Part shown: positions 2,630-60,187 of the stretch, piece by piece | How the letters are laid out: every line of letters begins with the position of its first letter | Position numbering within the stretch: the first letter of the stretch is position 1 | Assembly: GCA_001790525.1 (NCBI GenBank) | Contig: MGCU01000023.1 | Coordinates: forward strand, 5,659 to 69,658 | Length of the DNA stretch: 64,000 nt | Direction of reading: 5' to 3' | DNA from: Candidatus Saccharibacteria bacterium RIFCSPHIGHO2_12_FULL_47_16b | Lineage (GTDB): Bacteria; Patescibacteriota; Saccharimonadia; Saccharimonadales; UBA10212 | Notes under the pieces: model-generated | Told to the model about the DNA's origin: nothing | The model's input: the letters and a program-made list of their open reading frames with translations, nothing else | Databases searched by the model: none | Position numbers and translations under genes: made by a program

Positions 2630-2647
2630 TTAGTATAGTAAGAAGTT

Positions 2648-3745: not shown

Positions 3746-3790
3746 AAAAATTGTTGTTTGATAAAAATCAAACTGTTACACTACTGCTAG

Positions 3791-4777
3791 ATGGGAGCAT
3801 CATCAGCCTTAACTATACCTGCTCATAAAAAGGAGCTGCACATAATAAGTGGCTCTAGCCATCGTGAATTGGCCGGAATGGTCGCCAAGAAACTCGGTAC
3901 TGAATTAAGTCAGGTTGAACTTACCCACTTTGCCAACGGCGAAATCATGTGCAAACTAGAAGAGTCGGTCCGCGGGGCCGACGTTTTTGTTTTTCAAAGC
4001 CATTTTAATCCGGTTAATGATGCCATCATTGAGCAAGCGATTATTATCGATGCCTGCAAACGGGCCTCAGCGGCTCGCATTACGGCCGTTTGTCCACTAT
4101 TTGGCTATGCTCGGCAAGACCGTAAATCTTCGGGACGCGAACCGATTGCCGCTAGATTGATGATTGATATATTAGCCACAGCCGGCGCCAACCGCATCGT
4201 TAGTCTTAATTTACATAGCGGCCAAATCCAAGGTTTTTTCAGCGGACCGTTTGATCACTTGACTGCACTACCGGCCCTAGCCGAACATCTAAAATCAAAG
4301 TTTGGTACCGATTTTGTCATCGTCTCGCCTGACACAGGCAGGGTTAAAATGGCCGAACGCTATGCTACCTATCTTGGAACTGATTTAGCAATTGTCCATA
4401 AACGCCGGGTTGGTAAAAACGTGGCAGAGGCACTAGATGTAATTGGCGATGTTAAAGGTAAGAACTGTGTGATTATTGATGACATGATTGATACGGCCGG
4501 GACGATGTGTGCCGCTGCTGAACAGCTTAAAAAACACGGTGCCGCCAAAATTTCGGCTGTTTCGTCTCATGGGCTATTTTCGCCGCCAGCTAAAGAAAGG
4601 CTAGATAATTCGCCGATTAACTTTATTATCGTAACCGACACTGTTCCGCAGACACTTAAATTCAAGAATGCCAAGCTGGAAGTCGTGACTGTATCAGATT
4701 TATTAGCCTCGGCCGTTAAAGCCATCTTTGAGGATAGTTCGGTTTCTGCCATCTTCGGCGGCCTTAACCAGATATAG
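3791..4777 (+). CDS. prs: ribose-phosphate pyrophosphokinase
   Basis: Prs N-domain HFANGEI and PRPP-binding loop IIDDMIDTAGT. Confidence 0.85.
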   Translation: MGASSALTIPAHKKELHIISGSSHRELAGMVAKKLGTELSQVELTHFANGEIMCKLEESVRGADVFVFQSHFNPVNDAIIEQAIIIDACKRASAARITAVCPLFGYARQDRKSSGREPIAARLMIDILATAGANRIVSLNLHSGQIQGFFSGPFDHLTALPALAEHLKSKFGTDFVIVSPDTGRVKMAERYATYLGTDLAIVHKRRVGKNVAEALDVIGDVKGKNCVIIDDMIDTAGTMCAAAEQLKKHGAAKISAVSSHGLFSPPAKERLDNSPINFIIVTDTVPQTLKFKNAKLEVVTVSDLLASAVKAIFEDSSVSAIFGGLNQI

Positions 4778-8079: not shown

Positions 8080-9184
8080 GCCCGATGGCGTCTCACAATA
8101 CGTCAGGACGTTGGGGGCTTGGCTAGCTAAAGGCGGCCATAAAGTTACCTATTTAGTCGGTCAATCAAAACTGCCATCATACGCTGGCGGCAAGGTCTAT
8201 TCCTTAAGCAAAAATCTACCCGTTAGTTGGGGCGGTAGTCGCTTATCAATTTCAGTTTTTCCAAAATTGAAGGCCATAAAAAAAATTCTCGATCAAGAAG
8301 ATTTTGATGTAATTCATGTCCAATTTCCTTACTCGCCTTTTATGGCAAAGTTGGTAATTAATGCTGCCAAACCGCAAACGGCAATTGTCGGCACGGTTCA
8401 TATATATCCTGCCAACCGACTGGCAGTGGATGGCTCGCGAGCCTTAAAGATAATTTATGGCAAAAGTCTTAAGCGGATTGATAAAGTAATTAGCGTTAGC
8501 CGGGCTGCAGCCAACTATGCTGATGATGTTTTCAAGCTGCAGACTGATATTTTACCGAACGTGGTTGATCTAGCAAAATATCAATCCACCGCAATGGTCA
8601 GCCAACAACAATCTAAACACATTGTTTTTTTAGGCAGGCTGGTTAAACGTAAAGGCTGCCAACAGCTACTAGAGGCCTTTCGATTACTTTTGAAAAAAGA
8701 TGCCGATGTGCACTTGAGCATTGGCGGCCAGGGTCCGTTGCGAACTAAACTCGAGCGCTACGCTAAAAACTATGGTCTTGAAAACAATGTTAAATTCTTG
8801 GGTTTTGTGCCTGAAGAAGCTAAGCCGTCTCTACTGGCTAGTGCGGCCATTGCCTGCTTCCCTTCTCTTTATGGCGAATGTTTCGGGATTGTCTTAATTG
8901 AGGCCATGGCGGCTGGTAGCGGCGTAGTTATCGGCGGTGATAATGAAGGCTATCGCAGCGTGCTTGGAAGCCGACCGAGCCTGTTAGTCAATCCTAGGGA
9001 ACCTCAAGACTTTGCCGACAGATTGTATCAGCTATTAAACAATAGCGCTTTAGCCAAAAAACTACATCAGTGGCAACAAGCAGAAATTAATCAATACGAC
9101 GTTGCAGTAGTTGGTCCAAAGCTAGTGGAACTTTATAAAGAGACAATTGCCAAGCGCCGCTCAAGCATGCATAATTTAGGTTAA
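8006..9184 (+). CDS. GT4-family glycosyltransferase (second tandem copy; 5' end overlaps the previous gene by 74 nt)
   Basis: GECFGIVLIEAMAAGSGVV and N-terminal DGVSQYV...KGGHKV. Paralogous to the upstream glycosyltransferase. Confidence 0.7.
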   Translation: MLIARMQRNSGKLSVAFLYDDSLDRPDGVSQYVRTLGAWLAKGGHKVTYLVGQSKLPSYAGGKVYSLSKNLPVSWGGSRLSISVFPKLKAIKKILDQEDFDVIHVQFPYSPFMAKLVINAAKPQTAIVGTVHIYPANRLAVDGSRALKIIYGKSLKRIDKVISVSRAAANYADDVFKLQTDILPNVVDLAKYQSTAMVSQQQSKHIVFLGRLVKRKGCQQLLEAFRLLLKKDADVHLSIGGQGPLRTKLERYAKNYGLENNVKFLGFVPEEAKPSLLASAAIACFPSLYGECFGIVLIEAMAAGSGVVIGGDNEGYRSVLGSRPSLLVNPREPQDFADRLYQLLNNSALAKKLHQWQQAEINQYDVAVVGPKLVELYKETIAKRRSSMHNLG

Positions 9185-10260: not shown

Positions 10261-11627
10261 GCTCGATACCAAATTGGACCAAGTTCTGTATCGTTAAGTT
10301 CAATTTTTTGACTTTTTAACTGCTGACGCAGCTCATCAGCTTTGGCCCAGTTTTTTGAAACTCTAGCCTCTTCCCGCTTCGTAATAAGTTGTTTTTGCTC
10401 TGGTGTGATATCGTTTGATTTGAGAAGTTCAAGACCGAAAACCAAATCTAAGAATTCAAGAAATTGATTTAGCTGATTTAGGGTTCGAGTTGGATCAACG
10501 CCGCTACTGCCGACTAAGTCAATTATTTTGTCCAGTTTAGCTAGGGCGGTTGGTGTAGCGAGATCGTTAGATAAATCTGCTAAGATCGACTCTTGTTGCT
10601 CGGTAAAATAATCATCGGGGGTTGAGGTAGCACCCGGCTGGGTTTGAAAACGTAAATCGGCAAAAGCTTGTAGACTTTTAAGGTTAGTTTGAGCGGCGCC
10701 AATCGAATCCCAGGTAAAGTTCAACTGGCTGCGGTAGTGGGCTTGCAGAAATAATAGACGCAGAGCTATCGGATCAAAACCTTTAGCGATGACATCCTCG
10801 AGAGTCAGAAAATTATTTAGACTTTTACTCATTTTTCGACCATCGACTAAAAGATGTTCAGCATGGACGAAAAAGCTGGCCAACTCCTTACCAGTGGCCG
10901 CCCGGCTTTGGGCGATTTCATTTTCGTGATGGGGGAACTTCAAATCGACACCGCCAGTATGAATATCAAAAGGCTGGCCGAGATACTTTACTGACATGGC
11001 TGAACATTCAATATGCCAGCCCGGCCTTCCTTCTATATTTTTGCCATCGATCTTGAAGTCCCAGCTAGGTTCGTCTGGCTTTTTAGCTTTCCAGAGGGCA
11101 AAGTCGGCCACGTGCTCTTTATCATATTCATCGTTATTAATTCGGTGGTGCTGGTGGCTACGATCAAGTGTCACAAACCGTCCATAATCTTTATAGTTAC
11201 CTATGTCAAAATAGACGCCATCATCCTCAATATACCTATTGGGAATTTGACGTATTAGTTCCTGCATCTCGGTAATCGCTTGACTGGCCCGAATCAGCTT
11301 AGATTCGTGTAGATCTATCCTTATCTTGGAAATGTCTTTGAGGAATATTTTTTCGTATTTCGCAGTCAAAATCTTGAAGTCTTGATTAGTCTGATTGGCT
11401 CGGGCAAAGATTTTGTCTTCAATATCAGTGATGTTCATAACGTGCTTAACCCCATAACCAGTAGCCTTGAGTGCGCGTCGTAACGTGTCTTCGAAAACAT
11501 AAGTTCGTAAATTCCCAATATGGACATGGTCATAAACCGTTGGGCCGCAGGTATAAAGTAAAACCTGACCCTTTTTAATGGGCGAAAATTCTTCTATTTT
11601 TTGAGTCAGGCTATTAAATAGTTTCAC
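10257..11627 (-). CDS. cysS: cysteinyl-tRNA synthetase
   Basis: Class I HIGH (HIGNLRTY) and KMSKS (KMSKSLNN) motifs plus the CysRS C-terminal domain. Confidence 0.9.
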   Translation of the reverse strand: MKLFNSLTQKIEEFSPIKKGQVLLYTCGPTVYDHVHIGNLRTYVFEDTLRRALKATGYGVKHVMNITDIEDKIFARANQTNQDFKILTAKYEKIFLKDISKIRIDLHESKLIRASQAITEMQELIRQIPNRYIEDDGVYFDIGNYKDYGRFVTLDRSHQHHRINNDEYDKEHVADFALWKAKKPDEPSWDFKIDGKNIEGRPGWHIECSAMSVKYLGQPFDIHTGGVDLKFPHHENEIAQSRAATGKELASFFVHAEHLLVDGRKMSKSLNNFLTLEDVIAKGFDPIALRLLFLQAHYRSQLNFTWDSIGAAQTNLKSLQAFADLRFQTQPGATSTPDDYFTEQQESILADLSNDLATPTALAKLDKIIDLVGSSGVDPTRTLNQLNQFLEFLDLVFGLELLKSNDITPEQKQLITKREEARVSKNWAKADELRQQLKSQKIELNDTELGPIWYRA

Positions 11628-12636
11628 CGGCCTTCTCTTTTTCGCTTTCGTCTAACAACTTGGTGGCAATCTTAATAGTTTCTACCTTAATTTCATCAAA
11701 AGCTCGACCGTTAGTAATTTTAAAACCGGCGGCTAGGGGATGGCCGCCACCGCCAAAATGCTCGGCTAACTTATCGGCAATGCCGTAGCCATAGTTAGAG
11801 CGGATTTTGGCTGTTATTTTACTAGCTTTATATTTTTTAAAACAAATGGCCACTTCAGTATTTTTAGCTAGTCGCATGTCATCAATGACGAGCATTGGTG
11901 GATTGTAAAGCGGACTATAGCGCTCAATTTCTTCCCATGGGATTGTGACAGTAGCAATACGTTCATCGCTATGAAACTCAACGCGCTTTAGCAGCTCGCC
12001 TTTATAGTGGATTAGCTCGGCCTCACGCCGCAACGTCTCGCGTCTAGCGCTTTCCAGCTCGGGCAGCTTAACGCCTTTTTCGACCAATTCGGCAATGATA
12101 TGAATCGAGCGGGCGGTGGTTGAAGCACTCATCAGCCCCAAGCTATCGCTTAATATAGCCACGGCGATTAAATCCATGGCTTCGCGGTCAAGTTGCCAGT
12201 TCAACTTATCCGCCAGTTCATAGATTATTTCGCCGGTGGCCACGGCTGCGGGTCGATAAATAACATCAGCTAACGAAATACTGGCGTCAGAAGCGTGGTG
12301 GTCGAGTACGATGACCGGCCTAGCCGCCAACCATGGCTTAGTGCCGCTTTTACTAAGCTGCTCGAGCAAATCTTCCGAAGCTGTATCAACGATGATTGCC
12401 CCGTCAAAATTTTTAGGTAGTTCTTTAAGTACCCTACCCCAACCTGGCAAATAATGAAGGTAACTTGGTAAATCGACACCACAATAGAGACTTACTTTTT
12501 TGCCCTGATTCTCCAAGATAGACTCTAAGGCCAGAGCGCTGGCCAGAGAATCGGCATCCGGATTGTCGGCTTGAATTATGACAATCTGCTTGGCGTCGTT
12601 AATAATTTGGCGGATTTTAGCCGGTTCGTCAGACAT
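11614..12636 (-). CDS. DHH/DHHA1 phosphoesterase (NrnA-like nanoRNase/pAp phosphatase)
   Basis: DHH motif (VLDHHASD) and DHHA1 GGGGH motif. Confidence 0.7.
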   Translation of the reverse strand: MSDEPAKIRQIINDAKQIVIIQADNPDADSLASALALESILENQGKKVSLYCGVDLPSYLHYLPGWGRVLKELPKNFDGAIIVDTASEDLLEQLSKSGTKPWLAARPVIVLDHHASDASISLADVIYRPAAVATGEIIYELADKLNWQLDREAMDLIAVAILSDSLGLMSASTTARSIHIIAELVEKGVKLPELESARRETLRREAELIHYKGELLKRVEFHSDERIATVTIPWEEIERYSPLYNPPMLVIDDMRLAKNTEVAICFKKYKASKITAKIRSNYGYGIADKLAEHFGGGGHPLAAGFKITNGRAFDEIKVETIKIATKLLDESEKEKAGETI

Positions 12637-13676: not shown

Positions 13677-14855
13677 TCATTTTATCACGTAAATCATTCG
13701 CGTTTCGGGCGTATTCGGCCAAGCTAACAACGAATAATTAAAGCCATAAATTAAATGAATGAGAGATAGTGCCAAGATTAAAACGTAGGCAAAGTTTCTT
13801 GGGATGGGATTTTTCGGAAATACATTTTGCCACTCCAAATACAAAAAACGTAGGCCAGCTGAGGCAATAACGGCTAGTGGCGTAAGTGCAAAGATCAGAA
13901 ATATAGACAGGTTGTTTAATCCAGAAAAGATGACGGCGCCTATTACCATACAAAGCAGCCAGTATAATTTTTTGCGAGACGATGATTGCATGGCATAAAC
14001 ACCGAAAATCATTAAAACAGACACTAGTGTGGTAAGAATCGGTAACCGCCCAATAATAAATTCCATTTGTTCCTTGGCACGAACAAATAAAGTCAATACT
14101 GACCAGCCAATATTTTTTAGAAAATCGGTTACGGTTGGTAAATCGTTCGGGATAAGAGCTAATGATTTTAGCAGATTAGGGCTAACCACCAGACTGTAAA
14201 TAAGCGGTGACAAAATTAGAACAGACAATAAAAAGCCGCCCATAAAAGTCAACTTACTGAGCCGTTTGACATTGAACCAGAGAATCTTACGGCTGACGAT
14301 TAAAGCTGCCAGGAACAGCCAGATTAGGCCGGGTATATAGAGACTGGCGGCAATAATAAAACAAAATACCAACCAAGCTATGTTCACTCTATTTTTGGTT
14401 CTAGCTAGCCAATAATAACTGGCCAAAACTAAAACCGGTGACAGAAACAGGATGAATGGAGTGCCGCTGCGGCCAAAAATAATAGTCCAAGGTAAAGATG
14501 CGAAGATGATCGTTGCAGCTAGAGCGATAATTTTACCGAACCATTTGGCGCTAATCAAGTAAAAACAGACGATAAAAAGCACTGCCAAAATAACAGAGGT
14601 CAATCGCAGACTAAAGGCCGAAAATTCAAATAAATTCTGCAAGCCATACTGAATTAGCTTATGCGGACCATACAATGGATTATCAATAATCGCCTTAATT
14701 GAGGAGCTGTTGCCGGCAGCTGTAGTTTCACTATTACTAAGACCAAGATAATCTAATCGCCAGATAAATAATAAATAAAAAAGGCCGCTGCTCAGAACTA
14801 TGAAAAAGACTAACCGAGGGTTTATTTTTGTCAGCCGCCCTAACCGACTTAGCAT
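13677..14855 (-). CDS. polytopic membrane protein (possibly a GT-C-type glycosyltransferase)
   Basis: ~11 predicted TM helices with aromatic-rich loops. No diagnostic motif identified. Confidence 0.45.
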   Translation of the reverse strand: MLSRLGRLTKINPRLVFFIVLSSGLFYLLFIWRLDYLGLSNSETTAAGNSSSIKAIIDNPLYGPHKLIQYGLQNLFEFSAFSLRLTSVILAVLFIVCFYLISAKWFGKIIALAATIIFASLPWTIIFGRSGTPFILFLSPVLVLASYYWLARTKNRVNIAWLVFCFIIAASLYIPGLIWLFLAALIVSRKILWFNVKRLSKLTFMGGFLLSVLILSPLIYSLVVSPNLLKSLALIPNDLPTVTDFLKNIGWSVLTLFVRAKEQMEFIIGRLPILTTLVSVLMIFGVYAMQSSSRKKLYWLLCMVIGAVIFSGLNNLSIFLIFALTPLAVIASAGLRFLYLEWQNVFPKNPIPRNFAYVLILALSLIHLIYGFNYSLLAWPNTPETRMIYVIK

Positions 14856-16352: not shown

Positions 16353-17777
16353 CTATGATTCTAGCATCTCAGCCGGACCGAAAATATTGCTTATGGTTTG
16401 ATAATTGTCGGTCGAATCCTGAGTGAGTGTCTGTCGATGTTCAATCGGCGCGGTGGCATCTTTTTCGACTACACAGTCGATAGTCACAGAATTACCGGAT
16501 ATTTCTTTTATAATCTTGGCTAAACGTTGGATGTTATCGGCCTGCTTGACTTTATTAAGATGAAACGGAAAGGCAAAAGCTAGTCGTAAAACTCCGTTTT
16601 TGTAAGAAGGCGCCGCTAGTCGTAAAGCCGAATGGAGCGACCCGGCTTGATCTTTAACTGCTTGCAGAATTTTTGGCCAAATTTCCAGCGAGAAGATATT
16701 TGGATTGTCTTTTATTCTTGGCGGCTTTTTGACATTCGGCGAAGTTAGCTGAGCGGCAACTTCAACTTTGGCTAGCACTGGCTTAATCGGCCTGCTCGGT
16801 TGACTTAATTGGAAGTTCGGTGAGTTGACAGCCGCTTCGAATAGAACAATTTCTAGCTTATCAGCTGGATGTTTAGCAGCCGATACTTCACCGAGTTGTT
16901 TTAAAAGATCGGTTAGCCAAATGGCGTTATCAGCTTTAGCATTAATTAAATCGTCTCTGATTGATCGAGCCATTTGATTAGCAACGTAGACTGAATTGAT
17001 GGAGCTGCCTTTAATTTCTTCTATTAACCCGGCAATCTTGGCTAAGTCGGCGCGGTAAGTACTTTGCTTGAGCTGCTCGATTATATATGATGACGGTAGT
17101 CCGAGGAGCTTAAGTATTTTGGCGACGGTTATTTTACCCTTACTAGCACTAAGTTGATCAAGCAGACTAATGCTATCTCTAAAACTGCCTTCACCAAACT
17201 CGGCCAGTAGCTGCAATGCCTCGCGTTCGATAGCCAGTTTTTCTTTAGTAGCGATATTGCTAATATGTTTGGTCGCCTCAACTACCCCAACCGGTTTAAA
17301 GTTAAATCTTTGAGTTCGACTAACAATTGTTTCGGGTAGTTTATGCGGTTCGGTGGTAGCTAGGATAAAAATACAATGAGCCGGCGGTTCCTCCAGGGTC
17401 TTAAGCAGGGCATTGAAAGCTTCTTTGGTTAGCATGTGCACTTCGTCGATGATATAGACTTTGTATTTAGCCACAGTTGGCACGGTACTGACCTTGTCTC
17501 GTAAATCACGGATTTCATCAATCCGACGGTTACTGGCCGCATCAATTTCGATGATATCAAGATGAACCGTCTCACCACTGTAGGGTAGTTGGTTGACTTC
17601 GTGAGCTAGGATTCTAGCGACGCTGGTTTTGCCGACTCCGCGAGGGCCAGAAAATAAGTAGGCATGGCTAATTCGGCCGTCTTTGACAGCTTTAGCCAAG
17701 GTCTCGATAACAGCTGATTGACCAACCACTTCAGCAAATTTACGTGGTCTGTATTTGCGATATAAAGCCTGCCCCAT
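16353..17777 (-). CDS. dnaX: DNA polymerase III subunit gamma/tau
   Basis: AAA+ clamp-loader motifs (GPRGVGKT, SRTQRF-like SRC) plus C-terminal domains. Confidence 0.85.
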   Translation of the reverse strand: MGQALYRKYRPRKFAEVVGQSAVIETLAKAVKDGRISHAYLFSGPRGVGKTSVARILAHEVNQLPYSGETVHLDIIEIDAASNRRIDEIRDLRDKVSTVPTVAKYKVYIIDEVHMLTKEAFNALLKTLEEPPAHCIFILATTEPHKLPETIVSRTQRFNFKPVGVVEATKHISNIATKEKLAIEREALQLLAEFGEGSFRDSISLLDQLSASKGKITVAKILKLLGLPSSYIIEQLKQSTYRADLAKIAGLIEEIKGSSINSVYVANQMARSIRDDLINAKADNAIWLTDLLKQLGEVSAAKHPADKLEIVLFEAAVNSPNFQLSQPSRPIKPVLAKVEVAAQLTSPNVKKPPRIKDNPNIFSLEIWPKILQAVKDQAGSLHSALRLAAPSYKNGVLRLAFAFPFHLNKVKQADNIQRLAKIIKEISGNSVTIDCVVEKDATAPIEHRQTLTQDSTDNYQTISNIFGPAEMLES

Positions 17778-32817: not shown

Positions 32818-33897
32818 TCAGAGCGGCCGAAGACCAACTGCTTTCTGAACCTTTAGGAGTGTGGCCTCGGCAACTTGGCGCATAGCCAATTCGTCAGCCT
32901 CTAGTTTTTGCATTAACTCTCGATCATCAACAGCTTTGAGTTTAGCATGAAGGTTTGACAGAAAAGCACTGACGTTTTTAGCGACTAGTTGCTTGAAATC
33001 TTCGTAGTTCATCTCGCTGACGTTGGCTTCGGAGCCAGGGCTCAGTAGTTTCAAGATTTGTAGCAGATTAGCGATACCCGGCCGCGACTCAAAATCGGGG
33101 CTACCAACCTTAGCTTGGTTGTCAGTCGTGGCTGTCATTATTTTCTTAGCCGCTTCTTCGGGCTTATCGCTGAGCATGATAGTACCAGCTGGGTCATCAA
33201 TGCTTTTGCTCATTTTCCTGTCCGGATTACGCAGACTGCGGATACGTACAGGCTCCTGTGTACCAACAAATTTAGCCTGTTCTTTAATGGTTGCCGGTAA
33301 CACAAACATCTCGCCAAAGCGCTTGTTAAAGCGCTCGGCTAGATCACGAGTAAACTCCAGATGCTGACGCTGATCTTCGCCGACAGGGACGTATTTGGCA
33401 CCATAAAGAAGAATATCGGCTGCCATCAACACCGGGTAATTGAAAAGGCCGACATTGGCCGTACCGCCAGCCAGCATCATTTCTTTAACCCGCTCGATGT
33501 CGCTAGTAATCTGTTCGGCGTCATTGCCGGCTTTAGCGGCTTTATCTTTAAACTGTGTCATCCGGTTAAGCTCACCCAGATAGGTGAAGCAGTCCAATAT
33601 CCAAGTCAGCTCGGAATGAGCCGGTATATAGCTTTGGCGGTAAATAAACGTATCAGGCTGGTCGATATCTAGTCCGGCAGCAACGAAAACTTTCAGATTT
33701 TGGTGGGTTTGGTCGTAGAGCGTACCATGATCGATTGGTGTGGTAAAGCTATGTAAATCCGGAATAAACATATTCAGCTGATACTCGCCCGCATGTTTCT
33801 GTTGGAGTTTTACCATAGGCAAGATAGCACCGAGGTAATTGCCTAGGTGAAACTCATCATTGGACCTAAGCCCAGTTAAAATAACCTCTTTGTTCAT
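32818..33897 (-). CDS. trpS: tryptophanyl-tRNA synthetase
   Basis: Class Ic: HLGNYLGAI (HIGH-like) and KMSKS (RKMSKSIDD). Confidence 0.85.
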   Translation of the reverse strand: MNKEVILTGLRSNDEFHLGNYLGAILPMVKLQQKHAGEYQLNMFIPDLHSFTTPIDHGTLYDQTHQNLKVFVAAGLDIDQPDTFIYRQSYIPAHSELTWILDCFTYLGELNRMTQFKDKAAKAGNDAEQITSDIERVKEMMLAGGTANVGLFNYPVLMAADILLYGAKYVPVGEDQRQHLEFTRDLAERFNKRFGEMFVLPATIKEQAKFVGTQEPVRIRSLRNPDRKMSKSIDDPAGTIMLSDKPEEAAKKIMTATTDNQAKVGSPDFESRPGIANLLQILKLLSPGSEANVSEMNYEDFKQLVAKNVSAFLSNLHAKLKAVDDRELMQKLEADELAMRQVAEATLLKVQKAVGLRPL

Positions 33898-51265: not shown

Positions 51266-51655
51266 TTAAATTGTCGTTACTATTAATTGTCTGTCGCGAG
51301 GGCCGTCCAGCTCAACCAGCACAGCTCTTTGCCAAGTACCCAGAACTAGTTTTCCGTTTCGAACAGGTATACTTACGGAAGGTCCAATTATCGAACTGGC
51401 CAAATGGGCCGGCACATGAGCTGGATTATGTGGATGACGGTATTTGAGTTTTGGTATCATCTGCCAAACAGCGTCAAGTAAGTCGAGATCAGTTCCGGGA
51501 TCTAAATCGGCGGTCGTCACCGCACAAGTTGTATGCGCCGCGGAAACAATACATAATTTATCGCTAGCCTCAATTAGATTATTAACTTGCTCGGTAATGT
51601 CGATTACTTCTCGGTTTTGGCTGGTTTTTACTGTAAGCTCGATGGTTTTAGCCAT
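51266..51655 (-). CDS. YjbQ/UPF0047 family protein (secondary thiamine-phosphate synthase-like)
   Basis: 129 aa with the family pattern ...CIVSAAHTTCAVT...DLD...H...P.H... Inserted between rplC and rpsJ. Confidence 0.6.
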   Translation of the reverse strand: MAKTIELTVKTSQNREVIDITEQVNNLIEASDKLCIVSAAHTTCAVTTADLDPGTDLDLLDAVWQMIPKLKYRHPHNPAHVPAHLASSIIGPSVSIPVRNGKLVLGTWQRAVLVELDGPRDRQLIVTTI

Positions 51656-51679
51656 ACATCTATAATAACTAACTTTTGA

Positions 51680-52135
51680 TTGGCGGAGATAGTTGAGGCA
51701 TTATATAAGCATATGCAGATTTATAGAGATGGTGATTCATATGTCGTTGTTCTAAAACTAGGCGAAGAGCTGTTTGAATCCCTGACTAATTTTGTTAAAC
51801 AAAATGAACTAAAGTCTGCTTGGTTTGATGGCCTTGGCGCCGCCAAAGAAGTTGAGCTTGGTTATTACCGGCTAGACGATAAGCAGTACTCCTGGAAAAC
51901 TTTTGTCGGACCATTAGAGATTACCGGTTTGCACGGTAACATGGTTTTAAAAGATGGCCAGCCAGTCTTTCACGCCCATGGTTCCTTCGCCGACGGATCT
52001 TATAAGGTCATTGGCGGTCATATAAAAAGACTTATGGTCGCCGGCACCTGTGAAATTTTGGTTTCAAAACTCAATTTAGCTCTGACTCGTAAGTTTGACG
52101 ATGAAGTCGGTCTCGAGCTACTTGAAACGAATTAA
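51680..52135 (+). CDS. PPC/DUF296 domain protein (AT-hook-associated PCC fold), opposite strand inside the S10 cluster
   Basis: DUF296-like segments YVVVLKLGEELFESL...GLGAAKEVELGYY...GHIKRLMVAGTCEIL. TTG start on the track; alternative ATG at 51713. Confidence 0.5.
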   Translation: MAEIVEALYKHMQIYRDGDSYVVVLKLGEELFESLTNFVKQNELKSAWFDGLGAAKEVELGYYRLDDKQYSWKTFVGPLEITGLHGNMVLKDGQPVFHAHGSFADGSYKVIGGHIKRLMVAGTCEILVSKLNLALTRKFDDEVGLELLETN

Positions 52136-52267
52136 CCTAATTAACCTAATTTCTAATTAACCTAAATAATGACCTAATGTGCCAATGACTTAATGAGTAA
52201 AGTTTGGGATTAGGGTTTTGAATTTGTTTAGAGCAATTAGAACAATTAGTGCAATTAGAAATTTAAT
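52136..52267. repeat. Convergent-terminus spacer with TAATTAACCTAA (x3), TGACCTAATG/TGACTTAATG and CAATTAG(A/T) (x3) direct repeats
   Basis: Short direct repeats visible by eye. Between the PPC-gene stop and the rpsJ stop. Confidence 0.45.
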
Positions 52268-52603
52268 TTACATCTTGATCTCAGCATCGCACCCGGCTGG
52301 AAGGGTGAGATTCATAAGGGAATCGACAGTTTTCGGCGTTGGGTCGGTAATATCGATTAATCTTTTATGAACGCGCATTTCGTACTGTTCGCGGCCTTTT
52401 TTGTAAACATGGGGGCTTTTGACAACTGTAAAGGTACTTTTGCGGGTTGGCAGAGGTATTGGTCCGGCAATGTTAGCGCCGGTTCTTAAAGCTGTCTCGA
52501 TTATTTGTTTAGCTGATTGGTCTATAACCTTATGGTCATAGGCCTTCAGACGGATCCTTATCCGTTGCTTAATTTCTGACTCGTTTTTTTTGCTATCCGC
52601 CAT
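52268..52603 (-). CDS. rpsJ: 30S ribosomal protein S10
   Basis: [16 protein letters not shown] is the S10 signature. Start placed at the internal ATG (MADSKK..., 111 aa), 4 nt after the upstream ORF stop. The track ORF extends to 52660. Confidence 0.8.
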
Positions 52604-52607
52604 AGTT

Positions 52608-52856
52608 TTATCGTGGTAAGGTGACCCCGGCCTGTTTAGCGGCTTCCAGTAGTTCGGCATTAAGCCTTAGAAGTTTAGCCTCCACACTAACTTTGGCGAA
52701 GTTTTTGTCAGTTATCACGCTACTTTTCATCTGTTTCAACATCGCATATATCTCTTTAACATCATTCTCTATAGCTTCGAGCTTGCCTTCGAGCGGCTTC
52801 AGCTCTTCGCGCATAATTGAACGAATTTCGCTTAAATCAGTTGCGGTCAAACTCAT
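52608..52856 (-). CDS. hypothetical coiled-coil protein (82 aa)
   Basis: Heptad-like [25 protein letters not shown]. Positioned for translational coupling with rpsJ. Confidence 0.4.
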
Positions 52857-52924
52857 AGTGTTGAGTATTCTAACATTAATTTGATCCGCTGCTTTATTTC
52901 CGGCTCAGCTTTTTTATCTGCCAT

Positions 52925-53230
52925 TTAGTGTCCAATCCTTATTACTTGACCGGGTTTTAGGTCGACTTTACGTTGAGTAGCCAGCATAAAGTTCTTCACG
53001 ATTACCTCAGCTGAGTCATCGTAAGCGATATCCTCATAGCCAACACGTTCACTCTCACTCTCCGGTGGAAAAACAACTTGTGGAGAGTTTTTTGTGTGCC
53101 AATAAACCGTAACTGAGCCATCAGCCTCCGCCATCATTGCGCCTGAGACGCCAGCATATGAGAAAATGCGTCGGAATGGGTCCTCGTCCGTTATGCGATA
53201 TGGAGCTCCGTGGAATTCGACTTTGCTCAT
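52925..53230 (-). CDS. hypothetical protein (101 aa) immediately downstream of tuf
   Basis: Starts 9 nt after the tuf stop. No recognisable motif. Confidence 0.4.
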   Translation of the reverse strand: MSKVEFHGAPYRITDEDPFRRIFSYAGVSGAMMAEADGSVTVYWHTKNSPQVVFPPESESERVGYEDIAYDDSAEVIVKNFMLATQRKVDLKPGQVIRIGH

Positions 53231-53239
53231 TAAATTAGT

Positions 53240-54421
53240 CTATTTTACGATTTTGGTAACGACGCCGGCGCCGACAGTTCGGCCGCCCTCGCGAATGGCA
53301 AACCGCAGACCTTGCTCCATGGCGATTGGTGCTTGCAATTTTACTTTGAAGGTAACAGTGTCGCCGGGCATGACCATCTCTTTATCGGCTGGTAGTTCAA
53401 CTTCGCCGGTTACGTCTGTCGTGCGGAAGTAAAACTGCGGTTTGTAGCCTTTGAAAAACGGCGTGTGACGACCGCCTTCTTCTTTGGTCAGAATGTAAAC
53501 TTCGCTGTCAAATTCAGTGTGCGGCGTAATTGAACCGGGCTTAGCTAGAACCTGGCCGCGCTCGATGTCATCGCGTTCGATTCCGCGCAGCAGTACACCA
53601 ACGTTGTCGCCAGCTTGACCTTGGTCAAGATTCTTCTTGAACATTTCAACACCGGTTACAACCACTTTCTTGGTTGGGCGAATACCGACGATCTCAACTT
53701 CCTCGTTGACTTTGACTACGCCGGTTTCCACACGACCGGTGGCAACTGTACCACGGCCTTTGATAGAGAACACATCTTCGACGGCTAACATAAAGGGTTT
53801 ATCAAGATCGCGCTTGGGCTCGGGAATGTAGTCATCCATCGCCTTAAGCAACTCCATTACAGCCTCTTCATTGGCGGCGTCACCCTCTAGGGCTTTAGTG
53901 GCCGAACCCTTAATGATTGGGCAATCCCTGTCAAATTCGTATTTTTTAAGCAGATCGCGCACGTCTTCTTCGACTAAATCAACTAGTTCAGGGTCGGCCA
54001 AGTCCATTTTGTTTAAGAAAACCAGAATACTTGGCACACCAACCTGTTTGGCCAGCAGCACATGCTCACGAGTTTGGGGCATCGGACCATCAGCCGCGCT
54101 AACAACTAAGATAGCGCCATCAATTTGGGCGGCACCGGTAATCATGTTTTTGATGTAGTCGGCGTGGCCGGGCATGTCAACGTGAGCATAGTGACGTTTT
54201 TCGGTCTCATACTCTTGATGAGATGTGGCAATGGTAATACCTCGGGCTTTTTCTTCTGGAGCGTTATCAATCTGTTCATAAGAAACCGGCTTATTGATAT
54301 CACTTGGTAGCTTTTTAGATAAGACGCTAGTAATAGCGGCTGTTAATGTAGTTTTGCCATGATCAACGTGGCCAATAGTGCCAACGTTAAGATGGGTCTT
54401 AGTCCGATCAAAATCTGCCAT
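53240..54421 (-). CDS. tuf: elongation factor Tu
   Basis: G1 [10 protein letters not shown]3 DMPGHADY, G4 NKMD. 393 aa. Confidence 0.95.
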
Positions 54422-54639
54422 TTTCTCTCCCTTTGCCCACCTAAACTTTTTTAAAGTTTGCGCGGGTTTTCATTATTAGATTAATTATTAAATGCATGAG
54501 TTGTTATCTTACCATGTGGCCGCCGTCCCGCCAGGGCGGGATTGCACCTGAACATGAGAATACTAATCACCCCCATGCGGATATGCGAGAATTATAGATA
54601 AACCTAAACGCTTTGTAAAGTGTAATTAGACAGGAATTC

Positions 54640-55638
54640 TTACGAAATTTCGTCCGGCTTTCTACCAGGCGTGCTATAATCACCGACCGGATGGATTATT
54701 GCGTATGGACCTAAGTCGAAATCTCCAAGCGAATTACTCATTGAGTCTCCAGGACCAAGGTCATAATGATCGACTACTCCTCTGTTGCGCGCGTAATTTA
54801 CACACCCAGTTAGATTAGTTGGTTTGGTCGTTTGCAGGACTAAGTTATTGATTATCGTCTTAGCGCGTCGCATGGGCCTAGCCGTCCTTGTCGCAATAAT
54901 TTCTAAAGTGCTATCTTTGACGCCACCTTCCCTTAGGATTTCGTCCATCATGTAAGCCAATTTTTCTTCAGTAGCTTTTACAAATTTACCGTGAGGCGGA
55001 AACGGCAAGTTATCCAACGCAATCACCCTTCTGACACCAGGAATATCCTCAAGCGCTGCCTTTAATGCAACTTTTTCCTCATTGACATATGTCACCATAG
55101 TTTTAAAAGGTGTGTGTTCACCTCCTAGATGCGAATTCTCAAATTCTTTTACAGTTTTTTTAATAGTGTGTTTCAATCTTTTTGGAGGTGCACTCCGATC
55201 GTGTATGACAACAAAACCCCCGCCCTTTCCGCCAGCTTCTTCTACCTGTGAGCGACCTCTTTCATACGCAGTTATAGCCGCATCACGAAGTGAAATCGCT
55301 CCACCGATAGCAGCCGCCGTGAACTCCCCGGAACTAACGCCTATAAGGTAATCAGTAAAAATCCCACATTCATTGAGTGCTTTGGCGCGGGCGTATCCAA
55401 CTCCGACATTGACCGCTTGGATCACCGCAGGGTCGGTAACGGCTATTTCGCTTCGGCAAACATCAATCACATCTACGCCCGTAGCTATTCCAATTTCTTC
55501 ATAGATTCTGTGTGTTTCCGAGCCCTCTGATAAAAGATCTTGGCCGTCTTTAAAGCTTTTTATGCCTTGGCCTGGAGCATAAAAGGCTATTCTGCGCTTA
55601 ACGGGCGGAGAAGTGAACTCCGCCACTCTACTTGACAT
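54640..55638 (-). CDS. FabD-like acyltransferase-domain protein (malonyl-CoA:ACP transacylase superfamily, GHSxG with His replaced by Val)
   Basis: N-terminal oxyanion-hole motif FYAPGQG and nucleophile elbow GVSSGE (GxSxG), then ...AAAIGG, as in FabD. Confidence 0.55.
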   Translation of the reverse strand: MSSRVAEFTSPPVKRRIAFYAPGQGIKSFKDGQDLLSEGSETHRIYEEIGIATGVDVIDVCRSEIAVTDPAVIQAVNVGVGYARAKALNECGIFTDYLIGVSSGEFTAAAIGGAISLRDAAITAYERGRSQVEEAGGKGGGFVVIHDRSAPPKRLKHTIKKTVKEFENSHLGGEHTPFKTMVTYVNEEKVALKAALEDIPGVRRVIALDNLPFPPHGKFVKATEEKLAYMMDEILREGGVKDSTLEIIATRTARPMRRAKTIINNLVLQTTKPTNLTGCVNYARNRGVVDHYDLGPGDSMSNSLGDFDLGPYAIIHPVGDYSTPGRKPDEIS

Positions 55639-55653
55639 ACTTTTATTATAGCA

Positions 55654-56424
55654 TTATTTGCCAGATTTGGCAAAATCGGCTGCCACATTTCTGACTGGAT
55701 CAGTTAGTGAGGGCAAAATCAAGCTACACTTACGAAAGCTTGCGATTTTCTGAGCCCGCTGGTGGTGAGGGGTTAAGGGGTCTACAACTATTAGATTGGT
55801 TTCTTCTGGCTGAGTTTGATTTAAATTAACGTAGCCTACCGCTAATACAACGTGCTCTGGTAAGTCCATGCTTAATACGCTGCCTCTTGATAACTCTGTC
55901 AGAGCAACTCTAGCCAAATCTTCCCCGGCGAATTGAACATCGTAATAAGAAAAGTCAGCATCAGGAACGATTTCTTCAAAGTGTTCGCTAATCGCCAAAT
56001 TGCCAATTTTTACAACTTGATTTGATAGGATCAGTAGTTCAGCGTCGTTAAAGTATGACCTCAGCTCATCAGTCAAACTAGCATTAACGCGCTCGGCCGT
56101 TACCTGACTTATCTGCCCTTGCCAAAGCATGGCATTAAGTTGATTTGTGTTAACGCAGCTATGTATATCATTATTCTTGCTGTGTTGAGCTAATGGTGTT
56201 ATTTCGGCTGCCGGCTCTATATAATGCGTGACCGATAGATCAGTCATGCCTAATTCGTGTGAGCGGTATAGGAATAAAAGATAAGCCGCCCTTGATCTTT
56301 CCTCTTCCCAAATTTGACCGAGGGTCCTTGTAACAAGTGTCTCAGGACCAATCGTAATAGCTGGCTTGGGACCTACAATAATTGGCGCCTTTCGTCCAGC
56401 GGGCCTAAAACGAGGGTCTTCCAT
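55654..56424 (-). CDS. hypothetical protein with Cys...His...Asp pattern (possible NAT/BtrH/transglutaminase-like acyltransferase fold); C-terminal 13 aa copied from EF-G
   Basis: HSCVNTNQLNAML, HVVLAVGYVN and NLIVVDP spacing resembles arylamine N-acetyltransferase triads. C-terminus ...VRNVAADFAKSGK versus EF-G ...[15 protein letters not shown]. Confidence 0.45.
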   Translation of the reverse strand: MEDPRFRPAGRKAPIIVGPKPAITIGPETLVTRTLGQIWEEERSRAAYLLFLYRSHELGMTDLSVTHYIEPAAEITPLAQHSKNNDIHSCVNTNQLNAMLWQGQISQVTAERVNASLTDELRSYFNDAELLILSNQVVKIGNLAISEHFEEIVPDADFSYYDVQFAGEDLARVALTELSRGSVLSMDLPEHVVLAVGYVNLNQTQPEETNLIVVDPLTPHHQRAQKIASFRKCSLILPSLTDPVRNVAADFAKSGK

Positions 56425-56439
56425 AAGAGATACTATAAA

Positions 56440-58527
56440 CTATTTGCCGGATTTGGCAATTAGGCCGGCTGCCACATTGGCCGGCACATCGGCATAGTGG
56501 TCCAGTTCCATCGATGACGAAGCCCTGCCCTGAGTCATGCTCCTAAGATTGGTGACATAGCCGAACATCTCGCCCAGCGGCGCAAAAGCCGTGATCTCTT
56601 TGATTCCAGGTGATAGATCTACCATCGATTCAATACGACCACGTTTAGAGTTAAGATCGCCAATCACATCACCCATAAACCCCTCAGGCGTGACAACCAC
56701 GATTTTCATAATTGGTTCCAGCAAAACCGGTGAGGCTTTTTTGACAGCATCCTGGAGGGCGGCCGAGCCGGCGATTTTAAAGGCTACTTCGCTCGAATCA
56801 ACGTCGTGATAGGAGCCATCATATAGCTCAACTTTAACGTCAACTACCGGATAACCGGCGATCACGCCATTAGCCATAGCTTCCTCGATACCAGATTTTA
56901 TGGCCGGAATAAACTCGCTCGGGATGGAGCCGCCTTTAATGCTGTTAATGAACTCAAAGCCCTTGCCAGCTTCATTTTGGAAAAGCCGTAGCCAACAGTG
57001 GCCGTACTGACCACGACCACCGGTTTGACGAATGTATTTACCTTCGGCCTCAACGCCGTCTTTACGAATGGTTTCGCGGTAAGCAACCTGCGGCTCACCG
57101 ACATTAGCATCAACTGTAAACTCGCGTTTCATTCGATCGGCGATTATTTCAAGGTGCAGCTCGCCCATTCCAGAAATGATTGTCTGACCGGTTTCATGGT
57201 CGATTTTCATCCTAAAAGTTGGATCTTCTTCAGCCAGCCGTTGCAAGGCTTGGCTCATTTTTTCCTGATCGGCCTTAGTTTTAGGTTCAATGGCAATACT
57301 GACTGGTGGATCGGGAAAAGTGATACTTTCTAAAACAATCGGGTGCGTTGGATCACAAAGCGTATTGCCGGTTGTAGTACCCTTAAGACCAACTATAGCG
57401 GCAATGTCGCCGGCTTCAATTTCGCTAACATCTTCGCGCTTGTTAGCGTGTAACCTAACAATTCGGCCAATTCTCTCTTTTTCTCCTGTGGAACTGTTGA
57501 GGATGTAGCTACCGGCTTCTACCTTTCCGGAATAGGCTCTAAAGAAGGCCAGTTTGCCAACAAAGGGGTCGGTGGCAATCTTGAAGGCTAAAGCTGCAAA
57601 TGGTTCGGAGGCGTCCGGCTTACGCTCAATTTTATCGCCGTTTTTAGGGTTTACTCCCCAAGTCGAGCCACGGTCCAACGGGCTAGGTAGAAAATCAGTT
57701 ACAGCGTCGAGTAATTTCTCAACGATGACGCCCCGGCCATCCCCGCCAGAAACGGCAAAAAACTTACCGGTCAACACCGCCGTGCGGATAGCCTTACGAA
57801 TTTCATCTTCCGAGAGTCCCTCTTCGCCAACCTCCAAATACTTTTCAAGCATTTGCTCATCTTCAGCCACAGCATTCTCAACCAAAAGCGAACGGTATTT
57901 TTTGACTTGATCGGTCATATCGGCTGGTATCTCGCCTTCTATCAAGTTCTTGTCATGGTACTCCTTATAGATGTAAGCCTTCATGGTAATCAGATCGACC
58001 ACGCCATTGACATTTTGTTCAAAGCCAATTGGTAGATGAATCGGAAAGGCTCGTTTGGAAAGTCGGTGATGGATACTGTCCAAGCTTTTATAAAAATCGC
58101 CGCCGGTCTGGTTGATTTTGTTAATAAAACAAAGCCGCGGCACGTTATATCTATCGGCCTGGCGCCAAACGGTCTCGGACTGTGATTCGACGCCCATCTT
58201 GCCATCAAAGACAACCACCGCGCCGTCTAATACTCGTAAGCTGCGCTCGACCTCAACCGTAAAGTCAATGTGGCCGGGCGTATCAATGATGTTAATTTTT
58301 TTATCTTTCCAAAAACAAGTCACGGCGGCAGCTGTAATGGTAATACCGCGCTCTTTTTCTTGGGCCATCCAGTCAGTTGTGGTATCCCCGGTATGGACTT
58401 CACCGATTTTATGCTTTAAGCCGGTTCGATAAAGGATAGCCTCGGTGGTGGTCGTCTTGCCCGCATCAATGTGAGCAATAATGCCGATGTTCCGTAGATT
58501 CTCTAATGGGTATTTTTTATCTACCAT
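56440..58527 (-). CDS. fusA: elongation factor G
   Basis: G1 [21 protein letters not shown]. 695 aa, five-domain EF-G. Confidence 0.95.
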
Positions 58528-58532
58528 ACTAG

Positions 58533-58985
58533 TTATATCTCTATAGTTCTATCGATTATTTTACGGCTCATCCTTGAAGCTGCTTTTTGCACTGCTTCGT
58601 CATGTCGCGTCTTACGCTCCTCAATCTCAGCAACAGGTTGTTTTGATAAATTTTTTCTCTCTAATAACATTTGTACGGCAAGGCATTTTTTTGGTCTTTC
58701 GCCGATAGCCGGCATAAGGCAACCTTGCATGGCTTCAGCAACTTCTTCTGGAGTTGCATCTTTAGAAGATAATCCTAGATCTATTCGAGATATAAGTCTT
58801 CGCGAGCTCAGAGCGACTATCGCCAATCGTTCTGTGTTTGATGAGAAACCTTGAGCTATACTCTGCCACGAACCGGATTGCTTCATATACTTATCGATTT
58901 CATAGCCTAGCGGAGAATTTCCCAGTCTCCTTCTGAAGACACATCGGGCACAAGGCTCCACCATAATTCTTTCGGCGCCTATCAT
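58533..58985 (-). CDS. hypothetical protein (150 aa) between rpsG and fusA
   Basis: Fills an unusually long (559 nt) rpsG-fusA spacer. N-terminal CxRCV and later C residues. No assignable family. Confidence 0.35.
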
Positions 58986-59086: not shown

Positions 59087-59566
59087 TTATGATCTTGCAA
59101 AATGAGCAAATGCCCTATTGGCTTCGGCCATTTTATGAACATCTTCTTTTTTCTTAACGGCTGCGCCGGTGCCGTTGTAAGCATCGACCAGTTCGGCAGT
59201 AATTCGTTTTTCCATGGGCATGCCTTTACGATCGCGGGCGGCGGCCACAAACCACATTATTGTTAGGTGTTGCTGACGCTGGCCTTTAACTTCAACCGGA
59301 ATTTGGTAATTAGCGCCGCCGATCCGCCGAGCCCTAGTCTCAAGATGAGGTTGGATATTGGCAAAACCTTTTTCCAGTACCTCCAGCGGGTTATCAACTT
59401 TTAATTTATCTGCAGCCTGTTGCATGCCGCCGTAGACTAGTCGTTCGGCCAGTTGCTTTTTGCCGTTTAACATCACTCGATTAATTAGTTTACTTACCAG
59501 TTTGCTGTTATATAGACGATCTGGCTCAACATCGCGCACCAAAGATTTTGTAGTCTTACGCGGCAC
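59087..59566 (-). CDS. rpsG: 30S ribosomal protein S7
   Basis: S7 family (MPRKTTKSLVRDVEPD...). Confidence 0.9.
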   Translation of the reverse strand: MPRKTTKSLVRDVEPDRLYNSKLVSKLINRVMLNGKKQLAERLVYGGMQQAADKLKVDNPLEVLEKGFANIQPHLETRARRIGGANYQIPVEVKGQRQQHLTIMWFVAAARDRKGMPMEKRITAELVDAYNGTGAAVKKKEDVHKMAEANRAFAHFARS

Positions 59567-59665: not shown

Positions 59666-60076
59666 TTATTTACCCTTCTTGACGCCGTACTTACTGCGGC
59701 CTTTTTTACGATCCTGAACACCTTGCAGATCCAGATGGCCGCGGACAATGTGATAACGCACGCCGGGCAAGTCCTTAACTCGACCACCTCGAACTAATAC
59801 CACGGCGTGCTCCTGTAAATTATGCCCTTCACCGCCAATATAAGCCCAAACTTCATGGCCGTTAGTTAAACGCACACGGGCGACCTTACGCAGCGCCGAG
59901 TTTGGTTTTTTAGGAGTCTTGGTGGTAACCCGAATACAAACGCCGCGTTTAAACGGCGACGGTTTTTCATAACTTTTGGTTTTAAGGTTGTTAACCACGC
60001 GCTGCAGCGCCGGCGATTTGGTTTTGGCTTTGGCCGATTTACGAGGCTTCTTAACAAGTTGATTAATGGTTGGCAT
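59666..60076 (-). CDS. rpsL: 30S ribosomal protein S12
   Basis: Start refined to the ATG at 60074-76 ([10 protein letters not shown]...). The track ORF begins at an upstream [11 protein letters not shown] motif present. Confidence 0.9.
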
Positions 60077-60187
60077 CAGACGCTCCCTTCGGTCGCTCAA
60101 ACAACAAAAAGCAAAAATCAAAAATCAAACTTTGGAATTTGAAATTTGAATTTTTTTTGAAGTTTGAAGTTTGGAGTTTGGAGTTTA
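60077..60187 (-). repeat. AT-rich repeat spacer between rpoC and rpsL (AAATCAAAAATCAAA / TTTGGAATTTGAAATTTGAA / GAAGTTTGAAGTTTGGAGTTTGGAGTTT)
   Basis: Tandem 8-9-nt repeats. The conserved leader GAGCGACCGAAGGGAGCGTCTG abuts the rpsL ATG. Confidence 0.55.

Follow-up and report, generated by a model that had tools for sequence, protein, structure and literature searches.

Variable gene content between fusA and tuf in the str operon of Saccharibacteria: two apparently independent genes and a duplicated fusA tail

We analysed a 64,000-nucleotide stretch of the genome of Candidatus Saccharibacteria bacterium RIFCSPHIGHO2_12_FULL_47_16b (assembly GCA_001790525.1, contig MGCU01000023.1; the whole 64-kb stretch is referred to below as the window), in which two genes lie between fusA and tuf in the str operon. 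The first, ORF256 (55654-56424), encodes an orphan protein with an ordered Cys-His-Asp pattern and a predicted papain-like fold. The second, ORF332 (54640-55638), encodes a predicted divergent acyltransferase of the FabD fold, here termed FabD-like A. They are flanked by fusA (EF-G, 695 amino acids (aa); 56440-58527) and tuf (EF-Tu, 393 aa; 53240-54421), both recognised from the list of open reading frames (ORFs) and their translations, and all four genes are on the minus strand. An earlier note on this DNA had described the two genes as co-directional, with spacers of 15 nucleotides (nt), and all its coordinates proved right, although it did not mention that every gene is on the minus strand; it had also taken them for a cassette of acyl 'loader' plus 'transferase' inserted into the operon. 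Comparison with related loci leads us to another reading, to which we attach a probability of roughly 0.6, namely that the fusA-tuf gap is a variable hot spot for accessory genes in which ORF256 and ORF332 are independent of one another, their adjacency reflecting where insertions are tolerated and not a dedicated acyl relay.

Gene content of the fusA-tuf gap in related loci

The related loci compared here encode EF-G proteins 79-89% identical to that of the window. The arrangement seen in the window is common to 10/10 contigs of its own population, and it is only in that population that ORF256 and FabD-like A were seen together. Three further loci contain an ORF256 homolog. In L007, fusA is followed by the homolog P0012 and then by tuf, while in L008/L009 the homolog P0013 is followed by orphans of 128 and 97 aa before tuf is reached; neither arrangement includes a FabD-like gene. 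The third, L005, has fusA and an ORF256 homolog on a contig that ends before the downstream gene. FabD-like A, for its part, occurs without ORF256 at several loci. L143 has simply fusA, FabD-like A and tuf. In L001 (5219-7789) and L004 (162-2773) a 510-aa MGH1/GH63-like protein and a GT4 gene precede FabD-like A and tuf, and in L141 the C-terminal fragment of a GT4 gene (2-235) does so. In L142, which has no tuf, FabD-like A lies beside a divergent gene of the GH13 alpha-amylase family (2-349). Three more loci add to the variety: L010 carries an unknown gene, FabD-like A and a second, more canonical FabD-like gene, 'B' (1280-1663); L038 has B as the sole occupant of its gap (2635-3648); and L105 has a 112-aa orphan there. 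The B family is characterised by GHSLGE or GHSVGE and, in the case of L038, reaches 148 bits against the NCBIfam fabD model (TIGR00128), still below the cut-off.

It is these differing gene contexts that mark the gap as a variable hot spot and the two genes as something other than a unit. The 'loader plus transferase' cassette is not supported by the comparison, given ORF256 homologs without a FabD-like gene (L007, L008) and FabD-like A without ORF256 (L143, L001, L004, L141, L142). Comparison of the fusA-tuf junction had been proposed in the earlier note as a check, and the result is that the clade as a whole does not share these two genes at that position, so that clade-wide synteny does not apply. 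The description of the genes as 'inserted' is apt for ORF256, by virtue of the fusA-tail duplication and the candidate empty site in L143 described below, but not for the FabD-like gene, which is a recurrent resident upstream of tuf. The most recurrent occupant immediately upstream of tuf is a FabD-like gene, and ORF256 is an additional, rarer occupant.

Some of the candidates encountered during the comparison were discarded. The 510-aa GH-like protein that occupies the position of ORF256 in L001 was considered as a possible relative of ORF256 and rejected as unrelated. A scan of metagenomes with a 17-mer from the fusA tail returned mostly chance matches, the real str loci after tblastn filtering being L038, L064 and L105. 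Within the population of the window, one contig (L134; GCA_001790615.1, MGDA01000014.1, 612-3485) has fusA called as 482+145 aa and ORF256 as 100+140 aa, unlike the nine others, probably the result of assembly gaps or frameshifts.

The duplicated fusA tail and the promoter-like sites

The fusA/ORF256 and ORF256/ORF332 spacers are exactly 15 nt each (TTTATAGTATCTCTT and TGCTATAATAAAAGT), and the two junctions are homologous copies of each other, a relationship missed in the earlier note. They form part of a direct repeat of 66-69 nt on the minus strand. Copy 1 (56431-56499) covers ~20 codons at the end of fusA together with the stop codon and the first part of the 15-nt spacer, its near-identical core being at 56440-56478 (AATGTGGCAGCCGGCCTAATTGCCAAATCCGGCAAATAG); copy 2 (55644-55709) consists of a fusA-tail remnant, a stop codon and the spacer, with its core at 55654-55689 (AATGTGGCAGCCGATTTTGCCAAATCTGGCAAATAA). 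The cores share AATGTGGCAGCCG...TTGCCAAATCYGGCAAATA, and what has been duplicated amounts to the final 12-20 codons of fusA together with the spacer. The equal length of the two spacers is explained by the repeat, since it runs through the stop codon and the spacer. Local alignment of the two copies gives a score of 55, a value reached by 0/300 shuffles, and the last 11 residues of ORF256 (NVAADFAKSGK) are the duplicated fusA tail read in frame.

A comparable repeat is present in L005, where it lies 3' of the ORF256 homolog, is out of frame and extends over 54 nt at 76% identity (score 56; 0/300 shuffles). No fusA-tail repeat was found in loci without ORF256, these being L001 and L004 with their GH, GT4 and FabD-like genes, L038 and L105; a stretch 'ATTATTGCTAA' upstream of FabD-like A in L001 was considered as a repeat and rejected as too short. 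The junction between fusA and the FabD-like gene in L143 reads ATTGCTAAATCTGGTAAATAGTTTATAGT followed by 8 nt and the ATG, and its AAATAGTTTATAGT is identical at 14/14 positions to the fusA/ORF256 junction of the window; judged by sequence, L143 has the appearance of an unoccupied, or empty, site. Upstream of FabD-like A in L010 there is an exact ATTGCCAAATCT although the preceding gene is not fusA, and this match contains the fusA-tail 11-mer ATTGCCAAATC (12 bases with the final T). The repeat copies are more alike within a genome than are orthologous tails between genomes: AATGTGGCAGCCG is present in both window copies, compared to AACGTCGCCGAAA in L005, and the L005 copy agrees with its own fusA at 30/36 bases and with those of other genomes at 26-27/36 (hand count). 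Such likeness within genomes speaks for a recent duplication, for gene conversion or for integration on more than one occasion.

Sigma-70 consensus matches are superimposed on the repeat. Site P1 (56432-56459, minus; TTGCCA-16-TATAGT, 10/12) ends 7 nt before the ORF256 ATG, and P2 (55645-55673, minus; TTGCCA-17-TGcTATAAT, an extended -10, 11/12 + TG) ends 6 nt before that of ORF332. With a third site upstream of tuf (54591-54619, minus; TTTACA-17-TATAAT, 11/12), they are the three best in a consensus scan of 8.4 kb, P2 being the best of all. The -35-like hexamer of the fusA-tail site is formed by the EF-G codons I-A-K, with the -10 falling in the spacer. Neither ORF256 nor ORF332 has a Shine-Dalgarno motif and, taken with the promoter-like sites, this makes the two genes look like separate leaderless transcription units within the operon. 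The -35 region of both repeat copies (56444-56459 and 55658-55673, minus) also lies within an imperfect palindrome, TTGCCAAATCYGGCAA, with a 5-bp stem, flagged at the fusA end by a terminator scan; the palindrome might function as an operator or as a hairpin in the RNA, in place of a promoter element or in addition to one.

The local ancestral state was most likely fusA, FabD-like A and tuf, with A expressed from a promoter embedded in the fusA tail; in an arrangement of the L143 type, this would yield a leaderless mRNA. ORF256 would have entered the junction of fusA and the FabD-like gene together with a duplication of the fusA tail and spacer. By virtue of that duplication, fusA would stay intact, and ORF256 and ORF332 would each obtain a copy of the junction promoter.

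More widely in the window, TATAAT-like hexamers (at least 5/6 matches) peak 6-8 nt before start codons, at 10/72 crudely defined ORFs compared to ~0.4 per other offset, and the ribosomal protein genes use AAGGAG. The pattern suggests widespread leaderless transcription of non-ribosomal genes in this Saccharibacterium. Examples with a TATAAT-like hexamer and no Shine-Dalgarno motif are the ORFs at 285-956, 2648-3745, 11614-12636, 13677-14855, 16353-17777, 32818-33897 and 51266-51655. Searches of the literature found no report of leaderless mRNA in Saccharibacteria and nothing relevant on the subject in bacteria of the candidate phyla radiation.

The tuf gene itself has a leader of ~169 nt with a Shine-Dalgarno motif, AAGGGAG. 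Eight other loci have conserved both its promoter-like element (TTTACA-N17/18-TATAAT/TATACT) and the opening ~40 nt of its leader (CGCATGRGG...CTCATGC), the element being found upstream of tuf in L143 (1100-1205), L141, L105, L038, L001, L004 and L008. The leader region in the window (54422-54619) is ~90 nt longer than that of the other loci. A stem-loop at the leader start is weakly supported by RNAalifold (-1.87 kcal/mol), and there is no Rfam match.

Both spacers continue the reading frame of the gene before them and contain no other stop codon (56421-56445 and 55635-55659, minus; K*FIVSLM and K*CYNKSM), so that stop-codon read-through would fuse EF-G to ORF256 and ORF256 to ORF332. An EF-G/ORF256 fusion of this kind was set aside on account of the L008 junction, which is 1 nt long and out of frame, and of L007, which has a second stop codon.

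A more mobile origin of the repeats may also be envisaged, in which ORF256 and one copy of the fusA tail constitute a small excisable cassette and the highly conserved 3' end of fusA, with its putative promoter, serves as an att-like landing pad, with entry by homologous recombination, as a Campbell-type single crossover of circular or transformed DNA, and exit by loop-out between the repeats, neither step involving a dedicated integrase; other genes of the gap may have arrived likewise. Such a cassette would account for the direct repeats flanking ORF256 in the window and L005, for the greater likeness of copies within genomes, for presence and absence among relatives including the apparently empty site of L143, and for the fusA-tail 12-mer upstream of FabD-like A and behind an unrelated gene in L010. 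It also accords with our failure to find any recombinase, integrase or transposase in the window. We nevertheless consider it doubtful. The divergence of ORF256 runs in step with that of EF-G, the homologs 53%, 40% and 41% identical to ORF256 being accompanied by EF-G at 88.6%, 82% and 79% identity, respectively, a pattern compatible with vertical inheritance accompanied by losses and gene conversion. Furthermore, there is no polymorphism among the 10 contigs of the Rifle population, no repeat accompanies the GH and GT4 genes, neither a circular form nor another copy in the genome is known, and viral contigs yielded no matches.

Several points weigh against the preferred reading of the gap as a hot spot with mutually independent occupants, or against the history of ORF256 attached to it. 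ORF256 is represented at four loci only, one of which (L005) is cut short 5' of the downstream gene, so that co-occurrence of ORF256 with a FabD-like gene could be as high as 2/4. The repeat is absent from L007, which counts equally against an excisable cassette, and at the DNA level it is not significant in L008 (score 27; 63/300 shuffles reach it), where the end of the ORF256 homolog (...EAVAKSAK) resembles that of EF-G (...EAIIAKNAK). The putative promoters and leaderless starts were recognised purely by consensus matching, and overall the region contains no more promoter-like sites than shuffled sequence does (11 vs 12.3). The recurrence of FabD-like A or B beside tuf could reflect a functional link to translation. 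Lastly, no gene for acyl carrier protein (ACP), phosphopantetheinyl transferase, fab functions or polyketide synthase (PKS) was found in the 64-kb window, and none for ACP or fab functions in the related loci, but an ACP or partner genes may lie elsewhere in the genome.

The FabD-like and papain-like proteins

Both ORFs are genuine genes, ORF332 having eight homolog clusters and ORF256 three homologs with conserved blocks (40-53% identity). Each protein belongs to a known fold class but to an undescribed, very small family.

The ORF332 family comprises nine clusters, itself included, among 5.8 billion protein clusters, the eight others being 43-58% identical to it. Its family motif finds a single match among 185,579 species genomes, on the already known L004 contig; this branch of the FabD superfamily is apparently small and restricted to Saccharibacteria. 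An identical copy is annotated in NCBI as a hypothetical protein of Candidatus Saccharibacteria bacterium RIFCSPHIGHO2_12_FULL_47, and some sources label the homologs as malonyl CoA-ACP transacylase. The sequence falls short of established family thresholds, with 27.7 bits against Pfam Acyl_transf_1 (PF00698; gathering score 32.7) and 70.2 bits against TIGR00128 (curated cut-off 260.9). The family profile, however, matches FabD structures in the PDB with an E-value of 7e-26. The AlphaFold2 model is confident, with a predicted local distance difference test score (pLDDT) of 87.9 and a predicted template modelling score (pTM) of 0.87, and a Foldseek search with it retrieves FabDs as top PDB matches (template modelling scores of 0.79-0.86; for 1mla, E 4e-18, scores of 0.79-0.85 and ~20% identity). 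The placement of ORF332 in the FabD superfamily, as proposed in the earlier note, is thus borne out by profile and predicted fold alike.

In the profile alignment, Ser102 falls on the nucleophilic Ser of FabD, Arg127 on its carboxylate-binding Arg, His216 (PPHG) on its general-base His and Gln269 on its Gln, and all four residues of ORF332 are invariant in 9/9 aligned family sequences. Their codons are at 55333-55335, 55258-55260, 54991-54993 and 54832-54834, respectively, on the minus strand. The motifs quoted in the earlier note are all to be found, APGQG (Gln24) and GVSSGEF (Ser102) in ORF332 and HSCVNTNQLN (Cys90), EHVVLAVGY (His191) and LIVVDP (Asp215) in ORF256, although two of the comments made on them require amendment. 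The PGQG oxyanion-hole motif is present in ORF332, but its Gln varies in the family (Q, G or S). The replacement of His by Val in GxSxG is confirmed as GVSSGE, but is not unusual, the solved Streptococcus pneumoniae FabD having GLSLGE at this position.

By profile and model, then, ORF332 shares with malonyl-type acyltransferases both the FabD fold and the catalytic apparatus. Because it keeps the Ser, His, Arg and Gln, its most probable first step is the acylation of Ser102 by a malonyl-type (carboxy-acyl) CoA, and the acyl group would then pass to an acceptor or to water. The frequent neighbourhood of GT4 and GH genes hints at a glycoside or glycolipid as acceptor and, for FabD-like A in general, at a role in glycoside or glycolipid metabolism.

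ORF256 is rarer still. A word-indexed homolog search returned ORF256 itself and one other sequence. HMMER, run exhaustively against 1.84 billion representatives, identified P0002, P0012 and P0013, at 53%, 41% and 40% identity, respectively, and P0014 from the same search was rejected as a spurious repeat protein. Profile searching revealed no further members, and nor did scans of metagenome and viral contigs. The family therefore stands at four members in the 5.8 billion protein clusters, all encoded directly after fusA. Profile comparisons produced no matches in Pfam (E <= 10), NCBIfam (E <= 1) or PADLOC, and sequences in the PDB gave no meaningful match at E <= 10; PHROGs returned noise only.

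Cys90, His191 and Asp215 (codons 56155-56157, 55852-55854 and 55780-55782, minus) are nevertheless invariant in 4/4 members, within the motifs I-[HN]-S-C-[VT]-N-T-x-Q-[LI]-N, P-x-H-x-V-L-x-V-G-Y and V-x-D-P, respectively, which we take to resemble the 'HxVVL...DP' pattern of C39 peptidases. The N-terminus is long and rich in Pro and Arg, with no signal peptide evident. The structural model is weak, with a pLDDT of 54 overall and 64-89 in the C-terminal core; in it, Cys90 immediately precedes a helix, while His191 begins a beta-strand and Asp215 ends the strand that follows. The top structural matches of this low-confidence model are papain-like Cys peptidases, a BtrH-like protein appearing at rank 20, and Foldseek points to the same papain-like class without significance. 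The likeness to arylamine N-acetyltransferase (NAT), BtrH and transglutaminase-like proteins that the earlier note had drawn from the Cys/His/Asp pattern can therefore be kept only in part: the triad is ordered and invariant, but peptidases outrank the BtrH-like protein and no NAT is among the matches listed. ORF256 probably represents a new, very small family with a papain-like Cys-His-Asp fold, and would most likely be a hydrolase or transferase employing the Cys90 thiol.

Were the two proteins to act in relay, ORF332 would load a malonyl-type acyl group from CoA onto ORF256, and ORF256, as a Cys-His-Asp acyltransferase of the NAT, BtrH or transglutaminase-like kind, would transfer it to a small molecule or to a protein, perhaps one of the translation factors. 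In favour of a relay, the two genes lie side by side in one direction, each protein keeps its full catalytic set, all 10 population contigs share the arrangement, and FabD-like genes recur beside tuf. We consider such a relay very improbable, however. The loci enumerated above offer no co-inheritance, each gene has its own promoter-like site, and no carrier protein is encoded between the genes or elsewhere in the window; moreover, the leading structural matches of ORF256 are peptidases and not NAT, and Pfam provides no NAT or BtrH match at E <= 10. The comparative data lend no support to an acylation system dedicated to translation factors, and no evidence emerged for the antibiotic, amine or EF-Tu/EF-G substrates on which the earlier note had speculated.

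That ORF332 is a housekeeping FabD, as its fold, its complete Ser/His/Arg/Gln set and the naming of some homologs might suggest, is likewise hardly credible given its scores below the TIGR00128 and Pfam cut-offs, its ~20% identity to solved FabDs, the rarity of its family (nine clusters, one motif match), the lack of any AcpP- or AcpS-like sequence in the window, the GT4, GH63-like and GH13 neighbours, and not fab genes, of its relatives and, to our knowledge, the reported lack of de novo fatty-acid synthesis in Saccharibacteria. Our literature searches found nothing that links FabD to Saccharibacteria or Patescibacteria.

The wider region and relation to known systems

The remainder of the str operon lies upstream on the minus strand, rpsL (59666-60121) and rpsG (59087-59566) being recognised from the ORF list and a 150-aa orphan, ORF150 (58533-58985), separating rpsG from fusA. 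The corresponding interval of L008 contains ORFs of 100 and 106 aa (3299-3911), and ORFs of 60-61 aa are located between rpsL and rpsG in L001 (2141-2326) and L008 (2635-2817). These orphans are lineage-specific, and no homology was detected among the small orphan ORFs of different str loci. On the 3' side of tuf are two small orphan ORFs and then rpsJ. The junction of the str and S10 operons (51266-53230, from tuf to rplC) is interrupted by a 101-aa orphan ORF (52925-53230), by another of 82 aa that overlaps the extended rpsJ ORF (52608-52856), by a plus-strand gene with a PCC domain (51680-52135) and by a UPF0047/YjbQ gene (51266-51655). Composition indicates no obvious foreign island, and no Rfam families were found in 50-61 kb. 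Elsewhere in the window (6832-9184, plus strand) are two tandem GT4 genes, with weak matches to the GT4-conflict family, followed by an AI-2E family transporter; the pair is only distantly similar to the GT4 of the fusA-tuf gap in L001.

The str operon is among the most conserved of bacterial gene arrangements, yet approximately nine different fusA-tuf contents are observed at 79-89% EF-G identity, so that in episymbionts with reduced genomes not even the str operon is exempt from gene flux. Duplication of the fusA tail suggests how insertion is tolerated there, the essential C-terminus being kept and the embedded promoter copied, and may bear on the engineering of Saccharibacteria. Generalising further, the promoter-bearing 3' end of fusA might be an integrase-free recombination landing pad in soil and groundwater Saccharibacteria, through which leaderless accessory genes, ORF256 and perhaps others of the gap, are captured by homologous single crossover and lost by loop-out between duplicated tails; we regard this as an unlikely extension. 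If true, each insertion would restore the C-terminus of EF-G and provide the gene that follows with a promoter, all inside a core translation operon. Our searches found nothing relevant on fusA-tuf insertions in Saccharibacteria and, as far as the searchable literature shows, both the hot spot and the duplication of a promoter-bearing fusA tail are undescribed. Two uncharacterised enzyme families are also brought to attention: a FabD-fold acyltransferase in organisms thought to be without fatty-acid synthesis, often beside GT or GH genes, and an extremely rare, predicted papain-like enzyme always beside fusA.

Compared to FabD itself (E. coli, 1MLA), ORF332 shares the two-subdomain fold, and the equivalents of the GxSxG Ser, His201, Arg117 and Gln250 are aligned and invariant in its family. 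It differs in having GVSSGEF in place of GHSLGE, in its low identity and sub-threshold scores, in its variable oxyanion Gln, and in its setting, which is the str operon without fab or ACP context, with relatives often beside GT4 or GH genes and confined to a few contigs of Saccharibacteria type. The discrete acyltransferases and acyl hydrolases of polyketide synthesis (DisD, PksC/PksD/PksE, VinK) are similarly stand-alone FabD-fold enzymes, several of which are matched by the ORF332 family profile, and the tandem of two different FabD-like genes in L010 is presumably like the arrangement of acyltransferase and acyl hydrolase in trans-acyltransferase PKS clusters. In contrast to these systems, no PKS, ACP or ketosynthase gene is present in the window or the related loci fetched.

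For ORF256, the likeness to papain-like (clan CA) peptidases, such as xylellain (3OIS), interpain/SpeB of family C10, C39-like enzymes and UfSP/ZUFSP, lies in the order and placement of Cys, His and Asp in the model; the difference is that the model of ORF256 has low confidence and that none of the Pfam, NCBIfam or PDB families is matched by sequence profile. BtrH, arylamine N-acetyltransferase and transglutaminase-like proteins are more remote comparisons, ranked below many peptidases, without a Pfam match, and without a carrier-protein partner having been found for ORF256.

Integration at the 3' ends of tRNA genes duplicates att, and the islands that result resemble the ORF256 locus in their flanking direct repeats of the 3' end of the target gene. 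The ORF256 insert differs in its size of ~0.8 kb without an integrase, and in a repeat that is a protein-coding tail doubling as a promoter-like site. Brandis, Cao & Hughes 2019 (PMC6735719) argued that whatever is inserted into concatenated translation operons has to bring a promoter for the genes that come after it. The insertion described here lies within the rpoBC-str-S10 supercluster and keeps a promoter-like site for the succeeding gene, so that the arrangement of P1 and P2 fits their argument; it differs in being situated inside the str operon, between fusA and tuf, and not between operons.

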